From Longimicrobiales bacterium (GTDB lineage: Bacteria > Gemmatimonadota > Gemmatimonadetes > Longimicrobiales > Gaopeijiaceae): 64,000 nucleotides of DNA. Under the pieces are notes generated by a model. That model did not search any database, was not told the origin of the DNA, and saw only the letters and a program-made list of their open reading frames with translations. A program made the translations under genes and the position numbers. Shown here piece by piece: positions 1 to 59,416 of this stretch. Location: assembly GCA_965223925.1 (NCBI GenBank), contig OZ245028.1, forward strand, positions 2,914,022 through 2,978,021. Direction: 5' to 3'. How positions within the stretch are numbered: the first letter of the stretch is position 1; each line of letters begins with the position of its first letter.

Positions 1-3000
1 CACCGTGTACGGCGTTCCGTTGGCCAGACCGGTGATGGTGCGGGCGGTCGTCGTCCCGCTCGAGATCACATGCTGGCGCGCGTCCGCCGCGGCGTCCGCG
101 AAGGTCTCCGTACCCGACTTCCACTGCACCTTGTAGCCCGTGGCCCCGCTCACCGCGCTCCAGGACAGGGCCAACTGAGCATCGCCCTCCGTCACCGACA
201 GTCCGGTCACCGCTCCCGGCCGGGGCGGCGGCGCCGTCGGCGTGCCGGTCTTCTCGTCCGAAGGGGGGCCGTCGCCCACCGAGTTGGTCGCGATCACCCG
301 CACCGTGTACGGCGTTCCGTTGGCCAGACCGGTGATGGTGCGGGCGGTCGTCGTCCCGCTCGAGATCACATGCTGGCGCGCGTCCGCCGCGGCGTCCGCG
401 AAGGTCTCCGTACCCGACTTCCACTGCACCTTGTAGCCCGTGGCCCCGCTCACCGCGCTCCAGGACAGGGCCAACTGAGCATCGCCCTCCGTCACCGACA
501 GTCCGGTCACCGCTCCCGGCCGGGGCGGCGGCGCCGTCGGCGTGCCGGTCTTCTCGTCCGAAGGGGGGCCGTCGCCCACCGAGTTGGTCGCGATCACCCG
601 CACCGTGTACGGCGTTCCGTTGGCCAGACCGGTGATGGTGCGGGCGGTCGTCGTCCCGCTCGAGATCACATGCTGGCGCGCGTCCGCCGCGGCGTCCGCG
701 AAGGTCTCCGTACCCGACTTCCACTGCACCTTGTAGCCCGTGGCCCCGCTCACCGCGCTCCAGGACAGGGCCAACTGCGCATCGCCCTCCGTCACCGACA
801 GTCCGGTCACCGCTCCCGGCCGGGGCGGCGGCGCCGTCGGCGTGCCGGTCTTCTCGTCCGAAGGGGGGCCGTCGCCCACCGAGTTGGTCGCGATCACCCG
901 CACCGTGTACGGCGTTCCGTTGGCCAGACCGGTGATGGTGCGGGCGGTCGTCGTCCCGCTCGAGATCACATGCTGGCGCGCGTCCGCCGCGGCGTCCGCG
1001 AAGGTCTCCGTACCCGACTTCCACTGCACCTTGTAGCCCGTGGCCCCGCTCACCGCGCTCCAGGACAGGGCCAACTGAGCATCGCCCTCCGTCACCGACA
1101 GTCCGGTCACCGCTCCCGGCCGGGGCGGCGGCGCCGTCGGCGTGCCGGTCTTCTCGTCCGAAGGGGGGCCGTCGCCCACCGAGTTGGTCGCGATCACCCG
1201 CACCGTGTACGGCGTTCCGTTGGCCAGACCGGTGATGGTGCGGGCGGTCGTCGTCCCGCTCGAGATCACATGCTGGCGCGCGTCCGCCGCGGCGTCCGCG
1301 AAGGTCTCCGTACCCGACTTCCACTGCACCTTGTAGCCCGTGGCCCCGCTCACCGCGCTCCAGGACAGGGCCAACTGAGCATCGCCCTCCGTCACCGACA
1401 GTCCGGTCACCGCTCCCGGCCGGGGCGGCGGCGCCGTCGGCGTGCCGGTCTTCTCGTCCGAAGGGGGGCCGTCGCCCACCGAGTTGGTCGCGATCACCCG
1501 CACCGTGTACGGTGTTCCGTTGGCCAGACCGGTGATGGTGCGGGCGGTCGTCGTCCCGCTCGAGATCACATGCTGGCGCGCGTCCGCCGCGGCGTCCGCG
1601 AAGGTCTCCGTACCCGACTTCCACTGCACCTTGTAGCCCGTGGCCCCGCTCACCGCGCTCCAGGACAGGGCCAACTGAGCATCGCCCTCCGTCACCGACA
1701 GTCCGGTCACCGCTCCCGGCCGGGGCGGCGGCGCCGTCGGCGTGCCGGTCTTCTCGTCCGAAGGGGGGCCGTCGCCCACCGAGTTGGTCGCGATCACCCG
1801 CACCGTGTACGGCGTTCCGTTGGCCAGACCGGTGATGGTGCGGGCGGTCGTCGTCCCGCTCGAGATCACATGCTGGCGCGCGTCCGCCGCGGCGTCCGCG
1901 AAGGTCTCCGTACCCGACTTCCACTGCACCTTGTAGCCCGTGGCCCCGCTCACCGCGCTCCAGGACAGGGCCAACTGAGCATCGCCCTCCGTCACCGACA
2001 GTCCGGTCACCGCTCCCGGCCGGGGCGGCGGCGCCGTCGGCGTGCCGGTCTTCTCGTCCGAAGGGGGGCCGTCGCCCACCGAGTTGGTCGCGATCACCCG
2101 CACCGTGTACGGCGTTCCGTTGGCCAGACCGGTGATGGTGCGGGCGGTCGTCGTCCCGCTCGAGATCACATGCTGGCGCGCGTCCGCCGCGGCGTCCGCG
2201 AAGGTCTCCGTACCCGACTTCCACTGCACCTTGTAGCCCGTGGCCCCGCTCACCGCGCTCCAGGACAGGGCCAACTGAGCATCGCCCTCCGTCACCGACA
2301 GTCCGGTCACCGCTCCCGGCCGGGGCGGCGGCGCCGTCGGCGTGCCGGTCTTCTCGTCCGAAGGGGGGCCGTCGCCCACCGAGTTGGTCGCGATCACCCG
2401 CACCGTGTACGGCGTTCCGTTGGCCAGACCGGTGATGGTGCGGGCGGTCGTCGTCCCGCTCGAGATCACATGCTGGCGCGCGTCCGCCGCGGCGTCCGCG
2501 AAGGTCTCCGTACCCGACTTCCACTGCACCTTGTAGCCCGTGGCCCCGCTCACCGCGCTCCAGGACAGGGCCAACTGAGCATCGCCCTCCGTCACCGACA
2601 GTCCGGTCACCGCTCCCGGCCGGGGCGGCGGCGCCGTCGGCGTGCCGGTCTTCTCGTCCGAAGGGGGGCCGTCGCCCACCGAGTTGGTCGCGATCACCCG
2701 CACCGTGTACGGCGTTCCGTTGGCCAGACCGGTGATGGTGCGGGCGGTCGTCGTCCCGCTCGAGATCACATGCTGGCGCGCGTCCGCCGCGGCGTCCGCG
2801 AAGGTCTCCGTACCCGACTTCCACTGCACCTTGTAGCCCGTGGCCCCGCTCACCGCGCTCCAGGACAGGGCCAACTGAGCATCGCCCTCCGTCACCGACA
2901 GTCCGGTCACCGCTCCCGGCCGGGGCGGCGGCGCCGTCGGCGTGCCGGTCTTCTCGTCCGAAGGGGGGCCGTCGCCCACCGAGTTGGTCGCGATCACCCG

Positions 3001-3945
3001 CACCGTGTACGGCGTTCCGTTGGCCAGACCGGTGATGGTGCGGGCGGTCGTCGTCCCGCTCGAGATCACATGCTGGCGCGCGTCCGCCGCGGCGTCCGCG
3101 AAGGTCTCCGTACCCGACTTCCACTGCACCTTGTAGCCCGTGGCCCCGCTCACCGCGCTCCAGGACAGGGCCAACTGCGCATCGCCCTCCGTCACCGACA
3201 GTCCGGTCACCGCTCCCGGCCGGGGCGGCGGCGCCGTCGGCGTGCCGGTCTTCTCGTCCGAAGGGGGGCCGTCGCCCACCGAGTTGGTCGCGATCACCCG
3301 CACCGTGTACGGCGTTCCGTTGGCCAGACCGGTGATGGTGCGGGCGGTCGTCGTCCCGCTCGAGATCACATGCTGGCGCGCGTCCGCCGCGGCGTCCGCG
3401 AAGGTCTCCGTACCCGACTTCCACTGCACCTTGTAGCCCGTGGCCCCGCTCACCGCGCTCCAGGACAGGGCCAACTGAGCATCGCCCTCCGTCACCGACA
3501 GTCCGGTCACCGCTCCCGGCCGGGGCGGCGGCGCCGTCGGCGTGCCGGTCTTCTCGTCCGAAGGGGGGCCGTCGCCCACCGAGTTGGTCGCGATCACCCG
3601 CACCGTGTACGGCGTTCCGTTGGCCAGACCGGTGATGGTGCGGGCGGTCGTCGTCCCGCTCGAGATCACATGCTGGCGCGCGTCCGCCGCGGCGTCCGCG
3701 AAGGTCTCCGTACCCGACTTCCACTGCACCTTGTAGCCCGTGGCCCCGCTCACCGCGCTCCAGGACAGGGCCAACTGCGCATCGCCCTCCGTCACCGACA
3801 GTCCGGTCACCGCTCCCGGCCGGGGCGGCGGCGCCGTCGGCGTGCCGGTCTTCTCGTCCGAAGGGGGGCCGTCGCCCACCGAGTTGGTCGCGATCACCCG
3901 CACCGTGTACGGCGTTCCGTTGGCCAGACCGGTGATGGTGCGGGC
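1..3945. repeat. Tandem repeat array with an exact 300-bp period: 13 full units plus a 45-bp partial unit. It runs off the left edge of the window.
   Basis: Units start at 1, 301, 601 ... 3901 (caccgtgtacggcgttccgt...). The only differences seen are A->C at 778, 3178 and 3778, and C->T at 1513. Confidence 0.97.
1..3945 (-). CDS. Partial ORF of at least 13 tandem fibronectin type III-like 100-aa modules (fragment of a giant surface adhesin). No start codon or 5' region.
   Basis: The minus-strand frame is open through the whole array. It repeats PPPPRPGAVTGLSVTEGDAQLALSWSAVSGATGYKVQWKSGTETFADAAADARQHVISSGTTTARTITGLANGTPYTVRVIATNSVGDGPPSDEKTGTPTA, an FN3 pattern (W..., GY.V.W, Y.V.V.A.N..G.G). 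The module has no Met, so it is absent from the ORF track. Confidence 0.6.
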
Positions 3946-34087: not shown

Positions 34088-35335
34088 ATGCGAAAGCCAT
34101 TGGCAGCGTTCGGCGCAGTCGTCGTCTCATTCAGCCGCTCGCCAACCCGAACCCATCTCATCCTCCTGCTCCTGGCACCAGCCGCCGCCTGCGCACCCGA
34201 CCCCTCGCCCCCCGCCCACGCCCCACCCCTGATCCAAGACAGCGCCGGCATCCGGATCGTCACCTACGAGCGCACCCCAACCGCCGCCGCCCCCTTCCAG
34301 CTCGCCGCAGAGCCACGGTACCGCCACGGCGCCAGCCCGGGTGACTATGCCTTGCAGGAGGTTGGCGTCGGCCGCCTCTTACCGGACGGCAGCGCGGTCG
34401 TCTACGACCCATGGAACAGCGAACTGGTCGTTCTCGGCCAGGATGGCACGACGTACGAGGTGCTTGCCACGGAGGGAGAGGGACCCGGGGAAGTGGGCTC
34501 TGTCAGTGCCATATTCGCACTGGGGCAGGACAGTGTCCTGGTGGCTGACCTCAACCTCGGCCGGATGACTCTTTTCGTCGGCGCTTCGGTCGCGCGCACC
34601 GCGGGCCTCAGGCTCTCCGGCCGCCTCGGTGTGGAGGGAATCGGTTCATCCGGCGAGTTGCTGCTGGCCACTTACTGGGGTCCGTCCGTATTCGAAGAGG
34701 AATGGCTCCCCGGGCACATGATCCGGTTCGACATGGAGACCGGCGCCCTCGACACAATCGCGTCATACGATCTCAATCCGCGTATCCCGCCGGGGCTTCA
34801 GTGGGACCCGATCCGAGCGGCTGGCGAGGTCATGGTGGCCGCCGGGCAGTTCGTCTACACCAGGTCCGACAGGCCGGAGGTTACCTGGCGTCTGCCCGAT
34901 GGCACGGTAACGCAGATCATCCGGTGGCAGGCCGAGCCGGCTTTGCTGACCGAGGAGTGGCTGGAGCCCATTGAAGCCGAGCACCTTATTTCGGTTCGCA
35001 TGCACAGCCCCGGCGTTCCCGATGCCCGGATCGCGGAGATCACCCGAAGGAACATGGCCGCCTATCACGCCGGCATCGGCCGGCCGATGCCGCTCTTCGG
35101 TTCGCCGTTCGCCGACGCCGAAGGAAGGATATGGCTGCCGTCCTACAAGCCGGGCGGTGAGCGCCATAGTGTGGCCCCCTACAGCGTGATCGCGCCCGAC
35201 GGGGAGTGGCTGGGCACGGTCGAGGCTCCGCCCGGGTTCCGTATGCTCGATGTAGCCGGAGGGCTCGTCCTCGGCGTGGCGCGAGACGAAATGGATGTGG
35301 AGAGCGTCGTGGTGTACGAGTTGGTGGGTGGGTAG
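34088..35335 (+). CDS. GEGPGE-motif beta-propeller lipoprotein paralogue (subtype A).
   Basis: Lipobox LAPAAAC. IQDSAGIRIVTYE...TEGEGPGEVGSV... C-terminal DEMDVESVVVYELVGG*. Confidence 0.75.
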   Translation: MRKPLAAFGAVVVSFSRSPTRTHLILLLLAPAAACAPDPSPPAHAPPLIQDSAGIRIVTYERTPTAAAPFQLAAEPRYRHGASPGDYALQEVGVGRLLPDGSAVVYDPWNSELVVLGQDGTTYEVLATEGEGPGEVGSVSAIFALGQDSVLVADLNLGRMTLFVGASVARTAGLRLSGRLGVEGIGSSGELLLATYWGPSVFEEEWLPGHMIRFDMETGALDTIASYDLNPRIPPGLQWDPIRAAGEVMVAAGQFVYTRSDRPEVTWRLPDGTVTQIIRWQAEPALLTEEWLEPIEAEHLISVRMHSPGVPDARIAEITRRNMAAYHAGIGRPMPLFGSPFADAEGRIWLPSYKPGGERHSVAPYSVIAPDGEWLGTVEAPPGFRMLDVAGGLVLGVARDEMDVESVVVYELVGG

Positions 35336-35497: not shown

Positions 35498-36700
35498 ATG
35501 CCAGGCCGAAGCCACTTCATTCTTGTACTGATGGCAGGGGTCGGGGCGTGCGGGGGCGACACCTCGAAGACCGGTGATGTCCCGGTCGAGATCCAGGACA
35601 GCGCGGGCGTGCGGATCGTCGCGTATGAGGGGACGCCAACCACCGCCGCCCCCTTCCGCTTCCCCGCAGAGCCACGCTACCGCCACGGCGCCACCCCCGG
35701 CGACTACACCTTCCGCGGAATCAACGTCGGCCGCCTCTTCCCGGACGGCAGCGCCGTCGTCTCGGACGAATGGAACAGCGAACTGGTCGTCTTGAGCACG
35801 GATGGCACGACGCACGAGGTGCTTGCCAGGCAGGGAGAGGGACCGGGCGAAGTCATGTACGTCTACGCCATGTTCGCGCTGGGGCAGGACAGCGTCCTGA
35901 TGGCTGACCCTCGCCTGGGCCGCGTCACTCTCTTCGCCGGCGGTTCGGTCGCGCGCATCGCCAACCTGCATCGGTCAACCGGCCTCGGTGGGGCCGGAAT
36001 CGGTTCATCCGGCGAGTTGCTGCTGGCCACCCGAGTACCTTCCGAGCGCCTGTCCGGTTTCGAACGGGAATGGCTCCCCGGGCACATGGCCCGGTTCGAC
36101 ATGGAGACCGGCGCCCTCGACACGGTCGCGTCGTACGACTACATGCCGCGTATCCCGCCGGGGCTGGAGTGGAACCCGATCGCGGCGGTTGGCGAGGTCA
36201 TGGTCGCCACCGGGCAGTTCGCCTACACCAGGTCCGACAGGCCCGAGGTCACCTGGAGTCTGCCGGACGGCACCGTAACACAGATCGTGCGCTGGCAGGC
36301 CGAGCCCGCCCAACTGACCGAGGAACTGCTGGAGCCCGTCGAGGCCGACGAACGAATGAGGAACCGCGTTGCCTACCCCGGCCTTCCCGATTCCCGGATC
36401 GAGGAGATCACCCAGGAGGACATGGCCGCCTATTACGCCAGCATCGGCCGGCCGATGCCGCTCTTCGGTTCCCCGTTCGCCGACGCCGAAGGAAGCGTAT
36501 GGCTGCCCTCCTACCAGCCGGGCGGCTCACAAGATGGGTTGCCCTACACCGTCATTTCCTCGGACGGGGAGTGGCTGGGCAAGGTTGAGGCTCCGCCCAG
36601 GTTCCGTATTCTCGATGTGACCGGAGGGCTCGTCCTCGGGGTGCTCAGGGACGAAATGGACGTGGAGAACGTCGTCGTGTACGGGTTGATGGGGGGGTAG
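35498..36700 (+). CDS. GEGPGE-motif beta-propeller lipoprotein paralogue (subtype A).
   Basis: ATG at 35498 after ggagggagag. Lipobox MAGVGAC. RQGEGPGEVMYV. Ends DEMDVENVVVYGLMGG*. Confidence 0.75.
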   Translation: MPGRSHFILVLMAGVGACGGDTSKTGDVPVEIQDSAGVRIVAYEGTPTTAAPFRFPAEPRYRHGATPGDYTFRGINVGRLFPDGSAVVSDEWNSELVVLSTDGTTHEVLARQGEGPGEVMYVYAMFALGQDSVLMADPRLGRVTLFAGGSVARIANLHRSTGLGGAGIGSSGELLLATRVPSERLSGFEREWLPGHMARFDMETGALDTVASYDYMPRIPPGLEWNPIAAVGEVMVATGQFAYTRSDRPEVTWSLPDGTVTQIVRWQAEPAQLTEELLEPVEADERMRNRVAYPGLPDSRIEEITQEDMAAYYASIGRPMPLFGSPFADAEGSVWLPSYQPGGSQDGLPYTVISSDGEWLGKVEAPPRFRILDVTGGLVLGVLRDEMDVENVVVYGLMGG

Positions 36701-43589: not shown

Positions 43590-43925
43590 CTAAATGCCCT
43601 CCTCTGTCTGGTTTGAAATGCTCTTATCTGTCGAGATCGGCCACCGCTCCCCGACAGCCTTCAGCGGGGCGCCCACGAACCAGTGGAGCTTCGACCTCCC
43701 CTCGCGCCTCGTGCGAATCAGCCCGGCGGCTTCCAGGACGTCCAGGTGTTGCGAGATCGCCTGCCGCGAGGAGTTGATGCCATGCTTCATGGTCAGACGT
43801 GAGCAGAGTTCGAAGAGCGATTGACCTGACCGATCGACGAGCTCATCCAGGATGGCTCGCCTGGTTCGGTCAGCGATCGCGCGGTAAATGTCCACATGTA
43901 GTCTAAAGCAAGTGTTCGCTTGCAT
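43590..43925 (-). CDS. ArsR/SmtB-family transcriptional regulator.
   Basis: IYRAIADRTRRAILDELVDRSGQSLFELCSRL.......SRQAISQHLDVLEAAGLI. Confidence 0.8.
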   Translation of the reverse strand: MQANTCFRLHVDIYRAIADRTRRAILDELVDRSGQSLFELCSRLTMKHGINSSRQAISQHLDVLEAAGLIRTRREGRSKLHWFVGAPLKAVGERWPISTDKSISNQTEEGI

Positions 43926-43949
43926 GTCATGGCTTCATGATATGCAAGC
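43918..43949. promoter_or_regulatory. Inverted repeat GCTTGCAT-N16-ATGCAAGC in the divergent ArsR / 43960 promoter region.
   Basis: Arms at 43918-43925 and 43942-43949. The left arm contains the ArsR ATG. TGCATGTCA is reiterated nearby. Confidence 0.35.
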
Positions 43950-43959
43950 ATGGGCCTGC

Positions 43960-44610
43960 ATGTCAAAGATGACCGTCGCACTTGCCGTGCTGTTCGTCAG
44001 GAGCGGGACGCCTGCGGACGGTGTACTCAGAGCACGCGGGCTGATCATCGAAGACGAGGCCGGGCGCGAGAGAATCCTAATCGGCGCCCCGGTCCCCGAG
44101 GCCGCCAACCGTGTTCGTACCGATGAAGCCCGAGTGCAGGAGGTCTGGGCATCCCGGTACACGGACGCCGACGGCTACATGGGCTACTACCAAGGCTATA
44201 GCCACGAAACCAACGGGCTGCTGATCCTCAGCGAGGACGGGTTTGATCGCCTCGTCCTCGGGGATCCGGTGCCCGATCCGAACATCGGCAGGCGCATCGC
44301 CCCGAGCACGGGCATGGTGATCAACGACCTCGAAGGATTCGAGCGGATGGGGTACGGCTTCAAGGTTGTGAACGGTCTCGGTCGAGTCGGTTTGGGTCTC
44401 GACACGGATCGTATCCAGGAGGGTCTGCTTTTGACCCTGGACGACGACGGGCTGCTCGGCGTCACAGTGGGTACCGGGGCGAACGGGATCTTCCTTGGCA
44501 GCGCGCCCGCCGGTCACGAGTGGACCGGCCTTGCGGAGGCGTTTCAGGGGCTACTGGTCAGGCGAGACGGCGAGATCGTCCACCAGGTGAATGCCGCAAG
44601 GGACAGGTGA
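43960..44610 (+). CDS. Hypothetical protein with an N-terminal hydrophobic segment. No family recognised.
   Basis: MSKMTVALAVLFV... ORF with coding-like composition. A deleted remnant copy lies at 50014-50165. Confidence 0.5.
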   Translation: MSKMTVALAVLFVRSGTPADGVLRARGLIIEDEAGRERILIGAPVPEAANRVRTDEARVQEVWASRYTDADGYMGYYQGYSHETNGLLILSEDGFDRLVLGDPVPDPNIGRRIAPSTGMVINDLEGFERMGYGFKVVNGLGRVGLGLDTDRIQEGLLLTLDDDGLLGVTVGTGANGIFLGSAPAGHEWTGLAEAFQGLLVRRDGEIVHQVNAARDR

Positions 44611-46590: not shown

Positions 46591-46959
46591 TCATGCGGCA
46601 TGGGCAAGTGAGGGCGTCGCGGATCCGGGCGTGCGGGCCATGAGGCGGGTGAGGTCTTGTCGGGTGAACTTCCATTGAAAGGGGGAGGCGATCTGCTGGT
46701 AATGGTCCTGAAAGCCGAGGATACGGTCGGCGACTTGGTTCTGGGAAGTGAAGTGAGCGGGCGTGAGGGCTTTGCGCTGCAGGATCGAGAAGTAGATCTC
46801 GATCTGGTTCATCCAGCTCGCGTGCGTGGGCAGGTGCACCAGGGTGAGATTGTCGAACTGTGCCTGGAGACGGTCGACGGCGCGCTGGCCGCGGTGAATG
46901 GTGCCGCCGTCGACGATCCAGAAGACGCGTCTGGCCGAATGATAGGGTTCTCGGGCCAT
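46591..46959 (-). mobile_element. IS630-family transposase, C-terminal (DDE_3) fragment only.
   Basis: VFWIVDGGTIHRG...LVHLPTHASWMNQIEIYFSILQRKAL...F.S......I..F...Y. The N-terminal ~200 aa are missing. Confidence 0.7.
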
Positions 46960-46979
46960 AACCTTGGCGACGAGCGCGT

Positions 46980-47085
46980 CCGGCGGGTGCTGAACAGCTT
47001 CCTGCAGATGATCGGCTGTCAGAGCGCGATCTCGATATGGCGAATGGAAGCGAAGGGAAGAATCAACACTTCATTCTCATACGCA
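46980..47085 (+). pseudogene. Decayed copy of the IetA-IetS gene junction: an internal IetA piece fused to the intergenic region and first 14 codons of IetS.
   Basis: 46980-47015 matches 54872-54910 (RRVLNSFLQMI). 47016-47080 matches 55259-55323 (tcagagcgcgatctcga.atggcgaa.ggaagcgaagggaagaatcaacacttcattctca). Confidence 0.75.
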
Positions 47086-49865: not shown

Positions 49866-50010
49866 CATGGAGTGAACACGCGCGCGGCGCGATTCGCGAG
49901 CGCAGATGAGATGTTTGCGGAACTTGAAGAAGCCTCCGGCAAGTAAGCGGGCCAAGCAGCCGCGCAGGGTTGACTACGCCCGACAATTCCTCAAGGACTG
50001 GGAGCGGCTC
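49866..50010 (+). pseudogene. Remnant of a DinJ-YafQ-type TA pair: last ~25 codons of the antitoxin plus the first ~20 codons of a YafQ/RelE-like toxin.
   Basis: RAARFASADEMFAELEEASGK* parallels 58110-58179. It is followed by KQPRRVDYARQFLKDWERLS (toxin N-terminal pattern i.y...F.kd.krL). Confidence 0.55.
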
Positions 50011-50013
50011 TCC

Positions 50014-50165
50014 GTGTTCGTACCGATGAGGCCCGAGTGCAGGAGGTCTGGGCACCCCGGTATCCGGACGCCCCCTACATGGACTACATCAGGACTATGG
50101 GCACGAAACCAATGACGCTGAAAGATTGTCCACGAGGTGAATGTCGCAAGGGACAGGTGGAGCCC
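50014..50165 (+). pseudogene. Internally deleted remnant of a 43960..44610-type gene.
   Basis: 50014-50105 matches 44111-44215, and 50125-50165 matches 44575-44612. Confidence 0.6.
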
Positions 50166-50311: not shown

Positions 50312-52174
50312 TCATGGTGTCCGCCCGCCCCTTGCATGGGATTGGTAGGCTTCCTCAAGCTGGCTGACCGATTTCCCCGTCAACTCAAGCAGCGCCGTGA
50401 TGAGTTGGTCGTTGGAGACGACCTGATCTGAGTTGATTCGGTAGATCAGGGCATACAGAACGCCTGGCTCACGTTTTTCCAAATAGTCAAACAGCATGCA
50501 CGACTGCGAGTATGTTCGTTCGGGATCAGCAAGAAAGGCGTCGCGACTGAGACGGAGCAGCTGCGCGAGGGGCATGAGACGGGCTTGCTGATCATACCGC
50601 TGGAAGAGATCGGTGCAGTAGGGGACTGGCGTTGACATTCTGAGCGAGCCGCTGAACACACCGCCCTCAAAGTACATCGCAGTGCCTTCGATAAACCAAT
50701 GGGAGTTGCGCCACGCCCGTGGCCATGTCGCGTAGAGGAAATCGTGGCCGACCTCATGCAACTGAGTGCCGAAGTCCGGGATCTGGTACGGAATGACGAA
50801 CCACCGCGGGTAGTCAAAATAACAGGTCGTTACGTTCCTGGCTCCGGGGATGAAGATGGTGGGGCAGTGCGGCACGACCTTCTGAAAGACCGCCGGGTCT
50901 GATGTGTAGTAGGCATCAATGTGGGCGCCGCGGTTTCTGGCGTAGAGGGCATCGAAGAAATCCCAGACGCGCTTCAGATGCTCTGCGTGCTCCTTGCTGA
51001 AGGTCGGGCTGATGTCGGAGAAGACGCGAACGTTGGCCACTTGATGAACGTGTGGATAGTCGGCAGCCAGGGCGCGGAGCCATGCCGGATCCGTGTCGGG
51101 GAAGGGGGACGGAGGCTGCGGGGCCGGTGGCTCATGGGAGATCGCGAAATCCAGCACCGTGTCCGAGGCCAAGCCTAACCTGCGGCCGACTGACACGAAC
51201 CCTGCCGCCGTTGCTCGAATGGTGAACTCCGCTGGCCGCAGGGCTTCCAGCATGTAGCGCCCGCTATCGTCGGTGGTCGCCTGACGCCCGGCATCGGGGC
51301 CATCGACGACCTCAACGATGGCGCCAACGACGCGACCGGTGGGTGTAGTGACCACAGGCACCGCAGGCCCGAGATCTCGTACTTCAGGGTGTCGCAGATG
51401 CCGCCGCACGGAACGGCCATCGAAGCGGCCCTCGCGACCCGATTCGCCGGCGCTGCTCATGCGCAGCCGGTAGCTCGCTACGTCGGCAAACCCGTTCGTC
51501 TGAGGATCGGCCCACCCGTGACTGACGGTGCCTGATAGCGTCCAGCGGGTGGGTGCCGTCACCACCAACTCCGCCCGGCCGGTCACTCCTCCCGCAGCGG
51601 CGGTGATGGCCGTCTCGCCCGCCGCGACCCCGGTGACGAGGCCGTCGTCATCCACCCGGGCCACCAGGGTGTCACTGGACGCCCAGGCGAACACCGCGCC
51701 CGCTATCGCGTGACCGTTCGCGTCGGCCGCTTCGGCGGAGAGACGCACGGTGTCGGCCTCCACCAGGGTGTCCGCAGGCGGTGAAACCGCGACCGTGCTC
51801 ACCTCCTGGGCCACCGTCACCGTCGCGGTCCCGTTCGCGCCGCCCGCCGTCGCCGTGATCGTCGCCGCCCCGTTGCCTACCGCCGTAACGAGACCGGATG
51901 CGTCGACCGTCGCCACCGGCGCATCGTCGCTCGCCCAAGCGACGGCGGCCCCGGCCAGCACCTGTCCGTTCTGGTCGCGTACCTCGGCCGAGAGCTGCAC
52001 GGTTGCCCCCAGCGCGCTCAGCCGGGCGGTCGCGGGCGTGACCGTCACGGTCGTCGGCCGCGGGGGGTCGGGGGGCGGGGCCGGAGGTTCCGTGGTCCCG
52101 TCGCCGCAGGCGTACGCCCACAGGGCGGCCGATAGCGTCGCGGCCGCAAAGATGAAGATTCGATTGCGGTTCAT
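50312..52174 (-). CDS. Lipoprotein with two Big_2 Ig-like domains, a carboxypeptidase-regulatory-like beta-sandwich and a C-terminal HExxH (peptidase-MA-like) domain.
   Basis: Lipobox LWAYAC. Two units of VTVTPATARLSALGATVQLSAEVRDQNGQVL..A.V.WASSD..VA.VD..GLVT.V..G.A.ITA. LHEVGHDF ... EGTAMYFE. Confidence 0.7.
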   Translation of the reverse strand: MNRNRIFIFAAATLSAALWAYACGDGTTEPPAPPPDPPRPTTVTVTPATARLSALGATVQLSAEVRDQNGQVLAGAAVAWASDDAPVATVDASGLVTAVGNGAATITATAGGANGTATVTVAQEVSTVAVSPPADTLVEADTVRLSAEAADANGHAIAGAVFAWASSDTLVARVDDDGLVTGVAAGETAITAAAGGVTGRAELVVTAPTRWTLSGTVSHGWADPQTNGFADVASYRLRMSSAGESGREGRFDGRSVRRHLRHPEVRDLGPAVPVVTTPTGRVVGAIVEVVDGPDAGRQATTDDSGRYMLEALRPAEFTIRATAAGFVSVGRRLGLASDTVLDFAISHEPPAPQPPSPFPDTDPAWLRALAADYPHVHQVANVRVFSDISPTFSKEHAEHLKRVWDFFDALYARNRGAHIDAYYTSDPAVFQKVVPHCPTIFIPGARNVTTCYFDYPRWFVIPYQIPDFGTQLHEVGHDFLYATWPRAWRNSHWFIEGTAMYFEGGVFSGSLRMSTPVPYCTDLFQRYDQQARLMPLAQLLRLSRDAFLADPERTYSQSCMLFDYLEKREPGVLYALIYRINSDQVVSNDQLITALLELTGKSVSQLEEAYQSHARGGRTP

Positions 52175-52545
52175 GCATCCATCTCCGGGCCGGAGAGGAG
52201 GTCTTGGTGCAATAACTCGCCCAGGTGCGGAGCCTCACCAATTAGATTGGAGGTGGTCCGGCCAGACAGCAATCCCCAATGGAGGGATAGACGGAACCGC
52301 CGGCGAACGAGTTCGTTTAGCGCGCACCATCGGTCAACCCGGTCCTGCATCTCCTCCACCTTGAGCAGGCTCTTCAGGTAGGCCGTCACGTTCGCGTTGG
52401 CGTTGATCGTCCGGGCGAAGGCATCGTCGATCTTCGTGAGCAGAGCTGTCTCGCGCGCATTGTCAGGCTGAAGGTTATCCGGACCTTGGAGAACGGAGTC
52501 GAACGATGCAAACCCGTCTGACCATACTGCCACCGCCACGAGCAT
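52171..52545 (-). CDS. Small (124-aa) hypothetical helical protein. Its stop overlaps the start of the Big_2 lipoprotein gene.
   Basis: ATG at 52545. Sequence ...ETALLTKIDDAFARTINANANVTAYLKSLLKVEEMQDRVDRW... ATGA overlap at 52171-52174. It could instead be a frameshifted C-terminal extension of the DUF429 gene. Confidence 0.35.
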   Translation of the reverse strand: MLVAVAVWSDGFASFDSVLQGPDNLQPDNARETALLTKIDDAFARTINANANVTAYLKSLLKVEEMQDRVDRWCALNELVRRRFRLSLHWGLLSGRTTSNLIGEAPHLGELLHQDLLSGPEMDA

Positions 52546-53585
52546 GCTCGGCCTCGCTGCTTGCGGCTCCGATACCGGGCCCGCCGGCCCAAGGGTTGAA
52601 GTCGAGACGATCGGCGACACAACGATCCTCGGAGGGAATCGATTCGCAGCAGTCAATTGCCGCCGCTCGAGCGACCAGAGCTGCCACGAGCACATCGTCC
52701 GAGGCCCGACACTGAGACCGATCCTCTTTGGTGAGGGTGAGCCAGGAACTGGTCTTCTCGGCAAAGTCCCTAACAAGCTGGGCCCGAACTTTTTCTCCCT
52801 TGGTGCCTTTGTAGTCACGCGAGGGGAACCCCCATATCGACAGCGCTGCAGCAGGGTACGTTTCGACGAAGCGGCCGCCGCCGCTCCGATCAATGGCTTC
52901 GCCGGTTGCAGCTGCTGCTGCGAGCAGACGGGCAGCTCGCATCGCGGTCATCGCGATCCGATCCGACGAGACACCCAGAGGCCATCGACACAGTCTCTTC
53001 TTCACCGCTTGGTCCGTTCTCCGAAACCGAAGCTGGGAGACTTCAACAGAAGGCCAGACCATCGAGGTCGAGTAGTCATCGATGGCCCGGGTGAACGGCA
53101 CGGGCCAGCCAAAGGGGGCATCGATTCCGATCTTGTCTGCGCGCCTAAACAGCCCCAAGCAGGTCTGAGTCCGTCGCTCCCATCGAGAGTGACTCGACAC
53201 GTGCCGACGTGCTGCCCCAACGGATCAGGCAGGTGCCGGTGCGCTTCGGCTGAGATGCCAGATCCACACCTAGAGTGACCACTAGCCGAGACTCCGCTAG
53301 CGATCCAACTGTACCGCCGCAGTCGCACGCGACAACCTCGAAGCCGTGGCGTCGGAGAAACCCGTTGGACTCACGGCCTCCGGAGAATCGATCCGGATCG
53401 AGCGACTCGCCCGTCGCGATCTGATGAGCGAGCGAAATCGTGTACTTCGGGGGCAAGTGCTCGCCGTTCGTAGACAGGCAGTAGCCTCGGCCCCTTCTTC
53501 GCGGTGGTACGCCGTCGTGGACGATGCGCCGGATGGCTTCCGCAACGTGTGTCTCGGTGATGTACGCTGGGATCATAAGTCTCAC
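52475..53585 (-). pseudogene. Fusion of a small N-terminal (restriction-enzyme-head-like) domain with a DUF429 (RNase-H-like predicted nuclease) domain, interrupted by a 1-nt frameshift near 53150.
   Basis: N-terminal domain: AIRRIVHDGVPPRRRGRGYCLSTNGEHLPPKYTISLAHQIATGESLDPDRFSGGRESNGFLRRHGFEV. DUF429-like: TLGVDLASQPKRTGTCL ... SDLLGAV* / (frame shift) RRADKIGIDAPFGWP ... ETYPAAAL ... DDVLVAALVARAAA. Confidence 0.6.
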
Positions 53586-53866
53586 CGCGCGCGCAGCCAG
53601 GGCCGGTTCACGGTGTAGCGGCTGACGGAACTGCTGCTGTCCCGCTCGACGCCAATGAGCCCGCGGCCCTCCAGTCTGGCCAACGCAGCCTGGACCGCCC
53701 GCTTGGACAGGCCCGTGCCCTCCGCGATCTGCCTCAGACTCAGCTCAGCCGCCTTGTCGGCCACCTGCCGATACAGATAGAGGTAGGTCAGATAGGCGCT
53801 GGGATGCCGATCGTGCCCGACCAGATCGGGCAGAAGAACGTCGATGACATAGGGGTCGATTTCCAT
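53582..53866 (-). CDS. Small winged-helix (MarR/GntR-like) DNA-binding protein.
   Basis: LSLRQIAEGTGLSKRAVQAALARLEGRGLIGVER. Its stop overlaps the start of the next gene by 4 nt (53582-53585). Confidence 0.6.
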   Translation of the reverse strand: MEIDPYVIDVLLPDLVGHDRHPSAYLTYLYLYRQVADKAAELSLRQIAEGTGLSKRAVQAALARLEGRGLIGVERDSSSSVSRYTVNRPWLRAR

Positions 53867-53874
53867 CGCTCAAG

Positions 53875-54070
53875 TTCACTTCCATCCCCGTCCGGAACCA
53901 GGACGCCGCGCTCGACTTCTACACGAGCAAGCTGGGCTTCGCCGTGGCAACCGATCAGCCACTCGGTGAGCAGCGCTGGATCGAGCTGCGCATCCCCGGG
54001 GCCGACACCCGCGTCGTGCTCTACACCCTTCCAGGTCAGGAAGATCGCATCGGAACGCCGTCAAACGTGG
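53875..54070 (+). pseudogene. VOC-family gene, N-terminal ~65 codons only, with no start codon.
   Basis: FTSIPVRNQDAALDFYTSKLGFAVATDQPLGEQRWIELRIPGADTRVVLYTLPGQEDRIG parallels the N-terminus of 43192..43587. It begins 9 nt from the divergent wHTH start. Confidence 0.6.
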
Positions 54071-54270: not shown

Positions 54271-55260
54271 ATGGCCAGTGCTGAGCAGCTCAAGGCGTTG
54301 CTGAGGTCGCATCTGGAAGGCGACAACGACCGGTTTATCTCGGTCGCCATGCAGCTCGCCGCTCACGAAGCGAGGCTGGGCCACGGTAAACTGGCCACCG
54401 ATCTGCGCGACATCATTGATCAGGCCAAGAGCCGCCGTGAAGCGGGATCTCCGGTGCCGATCAGCCGGCCGCGCGGAGAGTTGGCCAACCTCCTGGAGGC
54501 TTCCTACCCCAAGTCACGGCTGGGGGACATGATCCTTGGAGAGACCCTCGCGGATCGGATCAAACGTGTCATTCGTGAGCAGCGCCATGCCGGGCGAATC
54601 CTGGATCACGGTCTTTTTCCAAGGCGGAAGCTCATGCTTGTGGGCCCTCCGGGCACCGGAAAGACGCTTACCGCGTCGGTCCTGGCGGGCGAACTCGGTC
54701 TTCCTCTGCTTCAGGTCCGCCTCGACGGCCTCATCACGAGATTCATGGGCGAGACCGCGGCCAAGCTGAGGCAGATCTTCGACGCCACCGACCAGACCCG
54801 GGGCGTGTATTTCTTCGACGAGTTCGACGCCATCGGTTCGAAACGCGCGATTGCCAACGATGTGGGGGAGATCCGGCGGGTGCTGAACAGCTTCCTCCAG
54901 ATGATTGAGCAGGACCGCTCCCACAGCATGGTGATGGCGGCGACCAATCATCCCGGCATACTCGACCGCGCACTCTTCCGCCGCTTTGACGACATCCTTC
55001 ACTTCGAGCTGCCGGACGAGTCGCAGATCGCCAAGTTGCTGAAGATGCGACTTGCCGCGGCGACGCAGCGGTCGATCGCATGGAGTGACCTCGCGAGCCG
55101 AGCCGTCGGGCTAAGCTACGCGGAGGTAGCACGGGCCGCGGACGATGTGATCAAGGATGCGCTGGTTTCTCGCCGTTCCCGGGTCCGGGAGCAGGAGATC
55201 CGCGCGATGCTTGAGGAGCTGAAGGCGACCCGTGAGCGGTTCGGGAAGCAACGGGCGTAG
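54271..55260 (+). CDS. ietA: AAA+ ATPase, IetA-like partner of the downstream S8 protease.
   Basis: Walker A LVGPPGTGKT and Walker B VYFFDEFDAIG. AATNHPGILDRALFRRFD (sensor / Arg finger region). Confidence 0.8.
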   Translation: MASAEQLKALLRSHLEGDNDRFISVAMQLAAHEARLGHGKLATDLRDIIDQAKSRREAGSPVPISRPRGELANLLEASYPKSRLGDMILGETLADRIKRVIREQRHAGRILDHGLFPRRKLMLVGPPGTGKTLTASVLAGELGLPLLQVRLDGLITRFMGETAAKLRQIFDATDQTRGVYFFDEFDAIGSKRAIANDVGEIRRVLNSFLQMIEQDRSHSMVMAATNHPGILDRALFRRFDDILHFELPDESQIAKLLKMRLAAATQRSIAWSDLASRAVGLSYAEVARAADDVIKDALVSRRSRVREQEIRAMLEELKATRERFGKQRA

Positions 55261-55278
55261 TCAGAGCGCGATCTCGAG

Positions 55279-57789
55279 ATGGCGAACGGAAGCGAAGGGA
55301 AGAATCAACACTTCATTCTCAAAGACGTAACGGAGACTGAGGCGTACAGCTATCCGGGTGGTGGTGGCGGCGATGGTTCTAACATTCCCGAACGCGATCG
55401 TACCGCACACGCCGCGGCCCTGCGAGGGCAACTGGACGCGGTTCGCGAAAACGCGGAGACCGCGGCAAATGCCCAGCGGGACGCCGGCATCGAAGAGGGT
55501 TTGGGACTTCAGGTCGAGTTCGAGAGTTTCCCCGATGTGGAGTTGGTGTTTGAGAGCCTGGCACGAGAGAAATCGGGAATCGAATTGCTGAATGTACGCC
55601 ATGAGGACAAGATCACTCTGGCAACTGTCTTCGTGCCCGACGGCAAGCTCGATCACTTCGAGAACCTACTCGTAGCCTATCTCGAACGCCGTGAGGATAG
55701 CCTCGGTCGCCCTCGAGACAGCAGGCTGCTACTCGACGCTATCCGACAGATCCGGGCGGCCAGTATTCGGGCACTCTGGACCGATGACCGTGGAGCCTTC
55801 CCCACCACCGAAGATGAGCCGGTGTGGTGGGAAGTGTGGCTACCGGTCAGGACGGATCGGCAAGCGACGACCGCCGCGTTTCGCGAGAGATCCGATCTCC
55901 AGGGAATGCGTTTGGCCAAAGGAGAGCTGAGATTCCCGGAGCGTACCGTCCTCTTGGCACAGGCTTCTGTGGAACAGATGCGAGCATCCATGGTCACGCT
56001 GAACAACATCGCCGAGTTGCGGCGCCCGAAGGAAACAGCGGAGTTCTTCGATACTCTGCTTCCTTCGGAGCAACTGGAATGGCTTGAAGACCTGCTGGCC
56101 AGGACTCGATACCCGTCCAGCGCCGAAGATGTCCCTTATGTCTGTCTCCTTGATACTGGAGTCAACCGCGGTCATCGGTTGCTCGCCCCCGCGCTGGCTG
56201 TAGATGACCTGCATACGGTCGAGCCTGGTTGGGGAACCGACGACGCCGACGGCCACGGGACGGAAATGGCAGGACTCGCTCTTGGTGGGGACTTGGCAGA
56301 ATTGTTGGACGCAAGCGGTCCGGTGGACCTCAGACACCGGCTGGAGTCCGTGAAACTGCTGCCCCGCGATGGGACAACCGGGACCGATCCCGAGCACCAC
56401 GGATACCTGACCGTCGAAGGAGTCGCGCGGCCCGAGATTCCTGCTCCGGACCGGCCAAGGGTTTTCGGCATGACCATCACGGCTCGCGACAACCGGGACC
56501 GGGGACGTCCGTCAGCATGGTCATCAGCCATCGATGCCTTGGCGGCCGACTCGGACGGACATGGAGGCCATCCGCGGATGCTCGTGGTATCCGCAGGCAA
56601 CGTCAACGACCCCACGGCGTGGGGCAACTATCCCGAGAGTAACGACTCGGACGGCGTACACGACCCAGCCCAGGCGTGGAACGTGCTTACGGTCGGCGCA
56701 TGCACCGACCTGGTATCGATAACCGAGCCAGACACCCAAGGACTTGAGCCAATCGCCCCGAAGGGTGGCCTGAGCCCCTTTAGCACCACATCTCTGCCGT
56801 GGCAGGGACATTGGCCAATCAAGCCGGACGTGGTATTGGAAGGCGGGAACGTCGCAAGGGACTCCTTGGGCGCCGTAACGATCCCGAGTCTCAGTCTCTT
56901 GACGACGAGCTATCGTCCAGCGATGCGATCCTTCACCACAAGCCACGCCACCAGCGCGGCGACCGCTCTTGCGTCCCGACTCGCAGCGCAGGTGATGGAA
57001 GCATATCCGGGCCTCTGGCCAGAGACGGTTCGCGGGTTGATCGTCCATTCTGCGGAGTGGACCGATGCAATGAAAGCCGCGTACTTGCCCGAAGGTCAGA
57101 GTCCATCCAAACGCGATTGCCAGAAGCTGCTACGTCGTTGCGGCTTCGGCGTACCGGATCTGGAACGCGCGCGCTGGAGCGTCGCCAATTCTCTGACCAT
57201 GGTTGTTCAAGAGACCCTGGTCCCATTCAAGCGCCGCAAGTCAGGAAATGTGGTGAGTCGCGAGATGCATATCCACAATCTGCCTTGGCCGCAGGAGGCC
57301 CTGGAAGCCCTGGGAGAGACGCCGGTCGAGATGCGCGTTACTCTCTCTTACTTCATTGAGCCGAACCCGTCTCGGCGGGGCGTCACGTCCCGATATCGAT
57401 ATGAGTCACATGGTCTCCGCTTCGACGTCAAGCGACCGCTCGAATCGATCGACGGCTTCCGCGGTCGAATCAGCGCAGCGGCGCGTGACGACAAATACGA
57501 AAGCGGTGGGGGCGGTGGCGATCCGTCATGGCTGATCGGTACCCAAGGCCGCCATCGCGGATCGATTCATGGTGACATTTGGCGTGGGAGCGCGGCCGAT
57601 CTCGCCAGCCGGGGGTACATCGCCGTCTATCCTACCTCGGGATGGTGGAAGACACGGCAAACACTAAAGCACTACGATAGAGACGTGCGGTATGCCCTGG
57701 TCGTGAGTATCCGGGCGCCGGAGGTTGACGTCGACCTATACACCGAGGTGGCGAACCGGATTGATGTCGGGGTGCCGGTAGAGATCTGA
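55279..57789 (+). CDS. ietS: S8 (subtilisin-like) serine peptidase with a large N-terminal extension, IetS-like.
   Basis: Catalytic Asp CLLDTGVNRGH, His DGHGTEMAGLAL, Ser SHATSAATALASRLAA. It starts 18 nt after the ATPase stop. Confidence 0.8.
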   Translation: MANGSEGKNQHFILKDVTETEAYSYPGGGGGDGSNIPERDRTAHAAALRGQLDAVRENAETAANAQRDAGIEEGLGLQVEFESFPDVELVFESLAREKSGIELLNVRHEDKITLATVFVPDGKLDHFENLLVAYLERREDSLGRPRDSRLLLDAIRQIRAASIRALWTDDRGAFPTTEDEPVWWEVWLPVRTDRQATTAAFRERSDLQGMRLAKGELRFPERTVLLAQASVEQMRASMVTLNNIAELRRPKETAEFFDTLLPSEQLEWLEDLLARTRYPSSAEDVPYVCLLDTGVNRGHRLLAPALAVDDLHTVEPGWGTDDADGHGTEMAGLALGGDLAELLDASGPVDLRHRLESVKLLPRDGTTGTDPEHHGYLTVEGVARPEIPAPDRPRVFGMTITARDNRDRGRPSAWSSAIDALAADSDGHGGHPRMLVVSAGNVNDPTAWGNYPESNDSDGVHDPAQAWNVLTVGACTDLVSITEPDTQGLEPIAPKGGLSPFSTTSLPWQGHWPIKPDVVLEGGNVARDSLGAVTIPSLSLLTTSYRPAMRSFTTSHATSAATALASRLAAQVMEAYPGLWPETVRGLIVHSAEWTDAMKAAYLPEGQSPSKRDCQKLLRRCGFGVPDLERARWSVANSLTMVVQETLVPFKRRKSGNVVSREMHIHNLPWPQEALEALGETPVEMRVTLSYFIEPNPSRRGVTSRYRYESHGLRFDVKRPLESIDGFRGRISAAARDDKYESGGGGGDPSWLIGTQGRHRGSIHGDIWRGSAADLASRGYIAVYPTSGWWKTRQTLKHYDRDVRYALVVSIRAPEVDVDLYTEVANRIDVGVPVEI

Positions 57790-57897: not shown

Positions 57898-58179
57898 ATG
57901 AAGACACATAGTTCGATGCTGCACGTCCAGATGGACACCGAGATGAAGCGGAAGGCGACAGCGGCGCTCGCGGCGATGGGGCTGACGGCCTCGGAGGTCG
58001 TGCGGCTGCTGTTCCACCGCATCACCATCGATCAGGCGTTCCCGCTCGAACTCAAGGTACCGAACGCGCAAACCCGGAGGGCCATGGCCGAGGTCGACGA
58101 AATGGTGAAGACGCGCGCGGCCCGATTCGCGAGCGCGGACGAGGTGTTTGCGGAAATTGAAGAAGCCAGCAGCCAGTAG
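57898..58179 (+). CDS. DinJ/RelB-family antitoxin with no cognate toxin gene (orphan).
   Basis: CAGGAGG RBS. MLHVQMDTEMKRKATAALAAMGLTASEVVRLLFHRITIDQAFPLELKVPNAQTRRAM fits the ribbon-helix-helix DinJ pattern. Confidence 0.75.
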   Translation: MKTHSSMLHVQMDTEMKRKATAALAAMGLTASEVVRLLFHRITIDQAFPLELKVPNAQTRRAMAEVDEMVKTRAARFASADEVFAEIEEASSQ

Positions 58180-59416
58180 ACGGGCCAACCGTTCAAAGGA
58201 CCGCCGGCGAGGGCATTCCCTGTCACGCCGAAGCCACCTCGCTTTTGTGCTGACGGTAGGGGTCGGGGCCTGCGGAGGCGACCTCTCCACCCCCACCCAC
58301 GCCCCACCCCAAATCCAGGACAGCACGGGCATCCGACTCGTCACCTACGACCACACCCCAACCGCCGCCGCCCCCTTCCAGCTCGCCCCCGCACCCCTCT
58401 ACCGCCACGGCACCAACCCGGGTGACTATTCCTTTCAGGAGGTCAGCGTCGGTCGCCTCATACCGGACGGCCGAGCGGTCGTCTACGACCCGTGGAACGC
58501 CGAACTGGTTGCATTCGGCCCCGACGGAACGACACACGAAGTCCTCGCCACGGAAGGAGAGGGACCAGGGGAAGTCAGCTACGTCGCCGCCATACTCCCG
58601 CTTGAGCAGGACAGCGTCCTGATCGCCGACCCCGGCCTCGCCCGCGCGACCCTCTTCGTCGGCGGGTCGGTCGCGCGCATCACGGCCCTCCCGCGCGGTG
58701 CCCGCCTCCGCGTTGAGGGAATCGGTTCCTCCGGCGAGTTGTTGCTGGCCACTGCCGGGGGCGCGTGGGGCTTCGAAGGGGATTGGCTCCCCGGGCACAT
58801 GGCCCGGTTCGACATGGAGACCGGCGCCCTCGACACGGTCGCATCGTACGATTTCTGGCCGCGCACCCCACCGCGGCTGGAGCGGAACCCGATCGGTGCA
58901 GTCGGCGAGGTCATGGTCGCCACTGGGCACTTCGTTTACACCAGGTCCGACAAGGCGGAAGTCACCTGGCGTCTGCCCGACGGCACCGTCACGCAGATCG
59001 TCCGATGGCAGGCCGAGCCGGCTCTTCTGACCGAGGAATGGCTGGCACCCATCGAGGCCGGGCACCGGATGCAGGCTCGCATGCACAGGCCCGACCTTTC
59101 CGATGCCCGGATCGCGGAAAACACCCGGAGTGACATGGCGGCCTATCACGCCACTATCGGCTGGCCGCTGCCACTCTTCGGTTCCCCGTTCGCCGACGCC
59201 GAAGGAAGGGTATGGCTACCCTCCTACAAGCCGGGCAGCGCGCGCCACAGCATGGCGCCCTATACGGTGATCGCGCCCGACGGGCAGTGGCTGGGCGCGG
59301 TGGAGGCTCCGCCCGGGTTTCATATTCTCGATGTCGCCGCCGGGCTCGTCCTCGGTGTGGAGCGGGATGAGATGGATGTGGAGAGTGTGGTGGTGTATGA
59401 GTTGGTGGGGGGGTAG
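58148..59416 (+). CDS. GEGPGE-motif beta-propeller lipoprotein paralogue (subtype A). Start uncertain.
   Basis: Lipobox VGVGAC. TEGEGPGEVSYV. Ends DEMDVESVVVYELVGG*. The position homologous to the ATG of 35498 is CTG here. The longest ORF uses TTG 58148 inside the DinJ 3' end. Confidence 0.7.
   Translation: MRKLKKPAASRRANRSKDRRRGHSLSRRSHLAFVLTVGVGACGGDLSTPTHAPPQIQDSTGIRLVTYDHTPTAAAPFQLAPAPLYRHGTNPGDYSFQEVSVGRLIPDGRAVVYDPWNAELVAFGPDGTTHEVLATEGEGPGEVSYVAAILPLEQDSVLIADPGLARATLFVGGSVARITALPRGARLRVEGIGSSGELLLATAGGAWGFEGDWLPGHMARFDMETGALDTVASYDFWPRTPPRLERNPIGAVGEVMVATGHFVYTRSDKAEVTWRLPDGTVTQIVRWQAEPALLTEEWLAPIEAGHRMQARMHRPDLSDARIAENTRSDMAAYHATIGWPLPLFGSPFADAEGRVWLPSYKPGSARHSMAPYTVIAPDGQWLGAVEAPPGFHILDVAAGLVLGVERDEMDVESVVVYELVGG

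Follow-up and report, generated by a model that had tools for sequence, protein, structure and literature searches.

ScoMcrA, a type IV restriction endonuclease of Streptomyces coelicolor (5ZMM), begins with a head domain (ScoMcrA_N, PF26345) that is small, flexibly attached and of unknown function (PMC6224610). Majorek et al. (2014, PMC3985635) assigned the family DUF429 (PF04250), predicted RNase H-like nucleases, to the RuvC/terminase clade, and the fusions that they reported for it are with NUDIX or RelA/SpoT. Within the literature searched, a ScoMcrA-type head fused to DUF429 was not found, nothing was found for ScoMcrA_N, PF26345 or DUF7255, and the candidate defence family PDC-S44 was found only in a survey. 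Here we analyze a string of open reading frames (ORFs) beside the IetAS genes of a Longimicrobiales bacterium, lying in a 64,000-nucleotide (nt) stretch of contig OZ245028.1 (hereafter, the window). An initial annotation had read the string as a candidate undescribed system, made up of a winged helix-turn-helix protein (wHTH), a nuclease-like protein in which a head domain is fused to DUF429, a small helical ORF (ORF3) and a Big_2/HExxH lipoprotein. We conclude that the four pieces are very probably unrelated, put together as a mosaic in a rearranged defence island, and do not form an operon-encoded system.

The ORFs in question are present on the minus strand, contiguous and with short overlaps (Table 1). 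Their reading as one translationally coupled four-gene system is nevertheless refuted: the genes do not co-occur elsewhere, with no case in the ~100 related loci examined, and DNA homology breaks at each junction. Homology of the wHTH stops at 53582, that of the fusion covers only 52623-53587, and that of the lipoprotein family begins at 52301. Judged by these limits of homology, the tight junctions are breakpoints and not conserved gene boundaries. The wHTH was found in none of three close DUF429 or fusion locus types, and DUF429 was found near none of five independent wHTH loci (L010, L011, L013, L029/L030 and L031/L032). Across 80 further metagenome DUF429 loci (370 kb), no DUF429 gene carries a head, and the head, wHTH, lipoprotein, ORF3, IetAS and VOC genes are all absent. 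Likewise, none of the 13 loci with relatives of the lipoprotein has a wHTH, a fusion or DUF429 gene, IetAS, or the ~200-aa (amino acid) lipoprotein described below. Two members of the string are, moreover, not intact, conserved genes, the fusion being a pseudogene and ORF3 a false ORF.

Two of the overlaps that had suggested coupling, the ATGA at 52171-52174 and the 70 nt shared at 52475-52545, were both found in the sequence. The latter exists because the DUF429 frame continues into unrelated DNA past a 3' truncation at 52623; the former is a coincidental stop, since the tail of ORF3 is the leader of the lipoprotein gene. The remaining one, the 4-nt GTGA at 53582-53585, is an overlap if GTG 53585 is the start codon, and is not one if the gene starts where its ortholog does, at ATG 53576 (MIP...); it appeared because the longest ORF was taken as the gene. 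With the latter start, the wHTH stop and the fusion are separated by a spacer of 5 nt. Spurious long ORFs are plentiful in this DNA of 60-70% GC, where 14 kb contain 138 ORFs that are 40 aa or longer. Scanning for promoters and terminators gave one promoter-like site, on the opposite strand, and no terminator-like site anywhere in the region (shuffles gave a mean of 2.4), a scan that is uninformative for this phylum. A search for RNA runs that contain the sequence found none.

The second gene is a decaying pseudogene. An intact ortholog of 342 aa, here P0001, is encoded on six metagenome contigs and is 90% identical to the read-through of the window fragments; by tblastn, the head in the window matches P0001 residues 1-141 at 92% identity. 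Lesions were called against P0001 and the DNA of loci L001-L006, with insertions and deletions given relative to L001, L014 and L015. The frameshift implied by the initial annotation is genuine, and consists of one extra G at 53156 within a run of G. Further downstream, a 9-nt deletion at ~52692 changes SDDVFDALVAAL into SDDVLVAAL and removes the D297/A298 region, and the 3' truncation at 52623 replaces the last ~20 residues (GLATKEGWIALPQSESLDKLV) with unrelated sequence. An alignment of 57 family members has D297, A298, E327, G328, A331 and P333 invariant; the truncation takes away E327, G328, A331 and P333, and the window copy does not hold the full invariant set. Even so damaged, the window fragment scores 86.4 bits with the Pfam model of DUF429 (intact ortholog, 114.9 bits; cut-off 23).

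The three lesions are nested across strains and samples. X6, L014 and L015 have the truncation but neither the 9-nt deletion nor the frameshift; X3 has the truncation and the 9-nt deletion but not the frameshift; X1, X2 and the window have all three. L014 and L015 are sister assemblies, 99.4% identical to the window and with the same gene order. The window's version is confirmed in the independent public runs X1 and X2 at 18-47x. An assembly error was considered as the source of the frameshift and ruled out: these two runs carry the shift at that coverage, and other samples are unshifted. The head-DUF429 gene has thus been damaged progressively since the loss of its 3' end, and in the window it is a dead gene. 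The gene caller put a 223-aa opposite-strand ORF in place of the truncated fusion in L014 and L015 (8998-9669), so that the annotation at hand does not show the pseudogene. The nested lesions amount to a record, across natural populations, of one nuclease gene's decay in real time.

ORF3, the small helical ORF, was not borne out as a gene. Only 51 of its codons have homologs, its start is not conserved, and it has no Pfam match. We searched with the whole frame downstream of the breakpoint: besides the window's own product, the matches cover 28-45% of the query (28-34% for all but one) at 64-93% identity, and all fall on the same 51 residues, internal to lipoproteins of ~200 aa. This lipoprotein family (P0242-P0256) is represented in related genomes by many copies that are fragmentary or internally deleted. 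Upstream of the relic in the ORF3 frame lies a filler of ~160 nt that has homology in none of the fetched loci except the sister strains. Downstream, the DNA at 51906-52301 aligns at 79% identity over 400 nt with a paralogous Big_2 lipoprotein gene of L024, taking in its start and the sequence upstream; in L024 the leader region is covered by no genuine ORF. A 1-nt difference at 52529 in L014 and L015 alters both frames, so that ATG 52545 is out of frame there. The coding-like GC content by codon position (0.66/0.42/0.72) was considered as support for a real gene and set aside, as the signal is due to the 153-nt relic (third-position GC of 0.92 near 52400). From these matches, ORF3 reads as a chance frame over filler, the 153-nt lipoprotein relic and the 5' leader of the next gene.

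The call of a wHTH was confirmed by Pfam, with MarR_2 at 28.3 bits and HTH_24 at 24.5 bits, each over its cut-off, and 1307 homologs were found. What accompanies the homologs is a divergent Glyoxalase/VOC gene, present in all five independent loci and down to 52% identity of the wHTH. It encodes 121 aa and lies ~134 nt upstream in L010 and L011 (wHTH identity 92%) and in L013 (84%), and ~290 nt upstream in Sulfidibacter corallicola (L031/L032, 52%); in L029/L030 (68%) the divergent partner, ~120 nt away, is only a 72-aa Glyoxalase fragment. The gene 3' of the wHTH varies among all loci: an opposite-strand gene of unknown function, a DUF5128 propeller, a 144-aa ORF followed by an IS21 element, a CarboxypepD_reg gene, or a giant CHAT/kinase/STAND gene. 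DNA homology between the window and L013 stops at 53582, exactly where the wHTH stop codon ends. Gene order thus points to the wHTH as, most likely, a local MarR-type regulator of a VOC/glyoxalase gene. The block of wHTH, CarboxypepD_reg and lipoprotein genes at L029/L030 (4001-7898) is duplicated within one 2.8-Mb contig.

A relic of the VOC partner had been recognized initially, and blastn bore it out (92-94% identity over 53870-54070). The string had been placed between IetAS and this relic, which is wrong, as the relic itself lies between the wHTH and IetA. It is cut at both ends: the gene has lost its first 13 nt and, on the other side, its 3' part. The whole 139-nt intergenic (promoter) region between the wHTH and VOC genes is deleted in the window, with ~3-7 nt of native sequence left before the wHTH ATG.

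The lipoprotein was correctly described as carrying Big_2 domains and an HExxH motif: Pfam and motif searches found two Big_2 domains, a CarboxypepD_reg domain and HExxH. L014 and L015 encode the identical protein. For its C-terminal domain we found 13 relatives (60-85% identity) in metagenome-assembled genomes (MAGs) of Longimicrobiales and Gemmatimonadota among others; several of these 13 loci carry tandem Big_2 paralogs, and the family is multi-copy in these genomes. An HExxH-x18-E motif (H129, E130, H133 and E152) is invariant in 14 sequences. Curated peptidase families in Pfam and NCBIfam matched only below threshold (Flagellinolysin 0.0023, BSP 0.077), a profile search of the C-terminal domain against the PDB gave nothing below E 0.5, and a single-sequence AlphaFold2 model of the domain was unusable (predicted local distance difference test, pLDDT, 42). 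The lipoprotein is probably an independently transcribed member of a multi-copy exported surface family, and a zinc peptidase. Among the loci L016-L028, C-terminal domains 60-69% identical to that of the window occur in MAGs labelled Dehalococcoidia, Bryobacterales and Acidimicrobiales, which suggests either horizontal spread among co-resident bacteria or mis-binned contigs.

Table 1. Reading frames, domains, relics and neighbouring genes of the string, in window coordinates.
Feature	Coordinates	Strand	Remarks
wHTH ORF	53866-53582	minus	94 aa
ORF of the head part of the fusion	53585-53145	minus	146 aa
ORF of the DUF429 part of the fusion	53200-52475	minus	241 aa
ORF3	first ATG 52545, end 52171	minus	124 aa
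Lipoprotein ORF	52174-50312	minus	620 aa
wHTH gene (MarR-like, Pfam)	53582..53866	minus	intact; orphaned regulator half of a divergent wHTH/VOC pair
Head domain (ScoMcrA N-terminal type) of fusion pseudogene	53289..53576	minus	likely true start ATG 53576
DUF429 part of fusion pseudogene (RuvC-like RNase H fold)	52623..53288	minus	Pfam DUF429 3.1e-24
Filler, ~160 nt, of unknown origin	52462..52622	minus	carries the DUF429 read-through tail and the ORF3 ATG
Relic of ~200-aa lipoprotein gene	52309..52461	minus	internal 51 codons (aa 121-171); tblastn of P0242 to 52461-52309
Native 5' leader/upstream region of lipoprotein gene	52175..52301	minus	last ~43 codons of ORF3
Lipoprotein gene	50312..52174	minus	intact, 620 aa; signal peptide with Cys23, two Big_2, CarboxypepD_reg, ~270-aa C-terminal domain
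VOC/glyoxalase relic	53870..54070	plus	~codons 5-71 of 121; blastn 92-94% to L010 7854-7654, L011 and L013
IetA	54271-55260	plus	PADLOC IetA 3.1e-73; NCBIfam IteA 8.2e-60
IetS	55279-57789	plus	PADLOC IetS 7.9e-32
RelB/ParE-type toxin-antitoxin relic	49872..50027		just downstream of the lipoprotein gene; 87% identity to L001 ParE/RelB genes

Recombination and deletion very probably account for these observations, having joined four unrelated pieces in a variable, defence-rich region of a Palauibacter-like (Gemmatimonadota) genome. The VOC gene was cut at both ends, and the promoter region it shared with the wHTH was deleted, leaving the wHTH orphaned. On this reading, a self-contained head-DUF429 module, in which a portable head joins a 244-aa RuvC-like nuclease that normally stands free exactly at its start codon, landed directly behind the stop of the wHTH, and its 3' end was lost. 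The fusion then decayed in steps, the 9-nt deletion coming first and the frameshift second.

Several points weigh against this mosaic. The fusion ORF is uninterrupted at 402 aa in L014, L015 and X6, where it ends in a nonsense tail. With only 5 nt from the wHTH stop to the fusion start, read-through transcription is physically possible. The locus L029/L030 has a wHTH homolog, a 4-nt overlap, a CarboxypepD_reg gene and then a Big_2/metallopeptidase lipoprotein gene. Finally, the roles given here to the head, DUF429 and the lipoprotein C-terminal domain are inferred ones.

The arrangement at L029/L030 would fit an ancestral control by the wHTH of a downstream Big_2/CarboxypepD_reg/metallopeptidase lipoprotein, between which head-DUF429 and the relics were later inserted. 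The 68%-identical wHTH of that locus overlaps the CarboxypepD_reg gene by 4 nt, a Big_2/Big_1/CARDB/Peptidase_M8 lipoprotein gene follows, and the first 89 residues of its product are 54% identical to the window lipoprotein. However, the arrangement occurs in one genome only and in a duplicated region, unrelated genes lie downstream in the four other wHTH loci, and a wHTH is missing from all 13 loci of the family to which the window lipoprotein belongs. Furthermore, the two peptidase domains are unrelated, and Big_2 lipoproteins are multi-copy in these genomes. We regard an ancestral link of this kind as unlikely.

The 5-nt spacer and the 402-aa ORF could instead indicate a new two-gene module, in which the wHTH was captured as regulator of head-DUF429 and which is functional in the sister strains and was lost only in the strain of the window. 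The ratio of nonsynonymous to synonymous substitution rates (dN/dS) of the fusion, 0.33 between L015 and the intact ortholog of L001, also speaks for it, but mostly reflects a long intact history and the intact L001 lineage. Moreover, the truncation is common to all these strains, which have lost the invariant EGWIxxP end; later lesions pile up in the descendants, as for a gene already free of selection; and the wHTH has lost its native upstream region. Such a module is therefore very unlikely. As for one coupled, undescribed system that places a cytoplasmic nuclease and an exported peptidase lipoprotein under the wHTH, the ORFs follow directly on one another on a single strand, with only short spacers or overlaps, adjoin IetAS and have no terminator-like site between them (none was detected anywhere in the region), but this can hardly be correct given the missing co-occurrence in the ~100 loci, the breaks of homology at every junction, an ORF3 that is relic read-through whose start is not kept even in strains 99.4% identical, a nuclease gene that is truncated, frameshifted and stripped of conserved residues, and the deleted wHTH promoter region.

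With the mosaic as the preferred reading, the only mildly new item is the rare head-DUF429 fusion, which is better studied in the intact ortholog than in the window. Both domain assignments made initially hold in profile searches. Pfam sustains the DUF429 call, at 3.1e-24 for the window copy and at 5.6e-33 for the intact ortholog. Recognition of the ~90-aa N-terminal domain as a McrA-type head is right as homology: a search of the PDB with the head family profile (hmmsearch) gave residues 4-94 of 5zmm_A as its sole match (E 4.6e-5), and hhalign of the head against ScoMcrA gave 96.8% probability at 30% identity. The family profile was needed to reach ScoMcrA, as a sequence search of P0001 against the PDB returned only a spurious ribosomal-protein match. 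Pfam had no match on the window head region; for the PF26345 model, P0001 has only a precomputed "faint" match, and our local Pfam copy gave nothing for the head even at E 10. AlphaFold2 modelled the head at a pLDDT of ~45, from an alignment that held DUF429 homologs only.

The head belongs to a large family. A search matched 1081 representative clusters at E up to 1e-3, and in the best-scoring 150 of these nearly all match from residue 1, in proteins of ~70 to 860 aa. Partner domains in 93 of these proteins include CN_hydrolase (14), DUF7255 (12), GIY-YIG_2 (4) and nSTAND3 (4), and more rarely the McrB N-domain with AAA_5 (3), EVE (2), HNH and HEPN; DUF429 is the partner in none of the 93. 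The closest heads (67-78% identity) sit on DUF7255/CN_hydrolase proteins. The head is thus a widespread N-terminal module, shuffled among many nuclease and nucleoside triphosphatase effectors.

The fusion is a real gene elsewhere, a reading that the dN/dS of 0.33 between L015 and L001 supports. Apart from P0001, the remaining close relatives are 244-aa DUF429-only proteins from Gemmatimonadota, some named Candidatus Palauibacter, and the fusion point coincides with the exact start codon of the free-standing gene (...SESRL|VITLGVDLA against MVTLGVDLA). The free-standing DUF429 genes occupy still other gene contexts; upstream of one of them (L007), a 73-aa ORF was considered as a wHTH and rejected, being a small hydrophobic protein with no HTH. 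In the AlphaFold2 model of P0001 the DUF429 domain has a pLDDT above 90, and Foldseek gave RuvC of Deinococcus radiodurans (7xhj) as best match (probability 1.00, E 3.7e-3, TM-score 0.54 on the target), with terminase nucleases and RNase HI among further matches. An RNase H-like fold is accordingly what the model predicts for this domain.

On its six contigs the intact fusion has no wHTH upstream and an Xre-type antitoxin gene downstream. Its neighbours there, in a defence island, include a PD-Lambda-5 A+B pair, a PDC-S02/PDC-M26A-like protein, a fragment of IetS and toxin-antitoxin modules. In L001 (8717-9307 and 10001-11029), whose lineage has the intact fusion, all that is left of IetS is its final 196 codons, ~700 nt upstream of the fusion and facing away from it; this locus has no IetA, VOC relic or wHTH, with ~690 nt lacking any match in their place. 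The IetS fragment implies that IetAS and the fusion were already neighbours in the defence island of the common ancestor. With the PADLOC models of PDC-S44, which have no curated cut-off, P0001 scores 1e-10 (39.6 bits), a free-standing relative 2.2e-8 and the window fragment 8e-5. The intact protein is most likely a one-polypeptide defence nuclease, with a head that would sense a nucleic-acid cue, or target the protein to one, and a DUF429 domain that would do the cutting. That the form represented by P0001 is an undescribed single-gene anti-phage or anti-plasmid nuclease, its head one of a large, portable family of N-terminal sensors, is a tentative proposal that we put forward as a possibility rather than an expectation.

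IetAS was correctly located next door: an intact AAA ATPase (IetA) and an intact S8 peptidase (IetS) on the same strand, 18 nt apart. It is not part of the string. The surrounding 41-62 kb are rich in short dispersed duplicates and relics. The RelB/ParE relic duplicates window 58105-58188, and pieces of the gene at 43888-44610 were found at 50012-50164. At 46979-47079, 34 nt of IetA and a 62-nt copy of the IetA-stop/IetS-start junction are 97% identical to 54872-54905 and 55260-55321; they seem to be what is left of a second IetAS copy that was deleted, and a truncated DDE_3 (IS630-type) transposase gene (46591-46959) adjoins them. Three paralogs of a ~1.2-kb gene, 78-82% identical, lie at 58221-59416, 34187-35335 and 35499-36700, one of them directly past the RelB-like gene that comes after IetS. 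The first 3945 nt of the window (1-3945) are a 300-nt tandem repeat (13.1 copies, 99% identity) that runs off the window start, probably inside a very large repetitive protein gene.

The candidate new defence system is therefore not upheld, and the modest lead that comes out of the locus is the head family with its DUF429 fusion, which places an uncharacterised RNase H-like family among likely defence nucleases. The string also carries a caution: in rearranged defence islands of high GC content, series of ORFs with 4-nt overlaps can come from recombination junctions and pseudogene read-through.

Compared with known systems, the wHTH resembles the regulator of a MarR regulator/divergent VOC pair, by its matches to MarR_2 and HTH_24 and by homologs that lie ~120-290 nt from a divergent Glyoxalase gene in five loci; unlike in such a pair, the VOC gene of the window is a relic and the intergenic region is deleted. 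The lipoprotein shares with gluzincin metallopeptidases on Big_2 stalks a signal peptide with its Cys, two Big_2 domains, CarboxypepD_reg and the invariant HExxH-x18-E, but has no significant match to a peptidase family in Pfam, NCBIfam or the PDB. Both P0001 and a free-standing relative match the models of PDC-S44, and the intact fusion sits in a defence island; the matches are modest, PDC-S44 is an unvalidated single-gene candidate, and its models have no match to the head domain. The DUF429 part is like the family at large in its strong Pfam match, in the resemblance of the P0001 model to RuvC, terminase nucleases and RNase HI, and in its invariant acidic residues, whereas most members of the family are single-domain proteins and the window copy is a pseudogene. 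Finally, neither the window protein nor P0001 matches HNH, SRA or SBD, DUF429 being the only domain matched; the fusion is therefore not a member of the McrA family, and no modification dependence can be claimed for it. Unlike ScoMcrA, it lacks SBD, SRA and HNH and would use DUF429 as its effector; like ScoMcrA, it carries the homologous ~90-aa domain, which in both proteins forms the extreme N-terminus of a nuclease.

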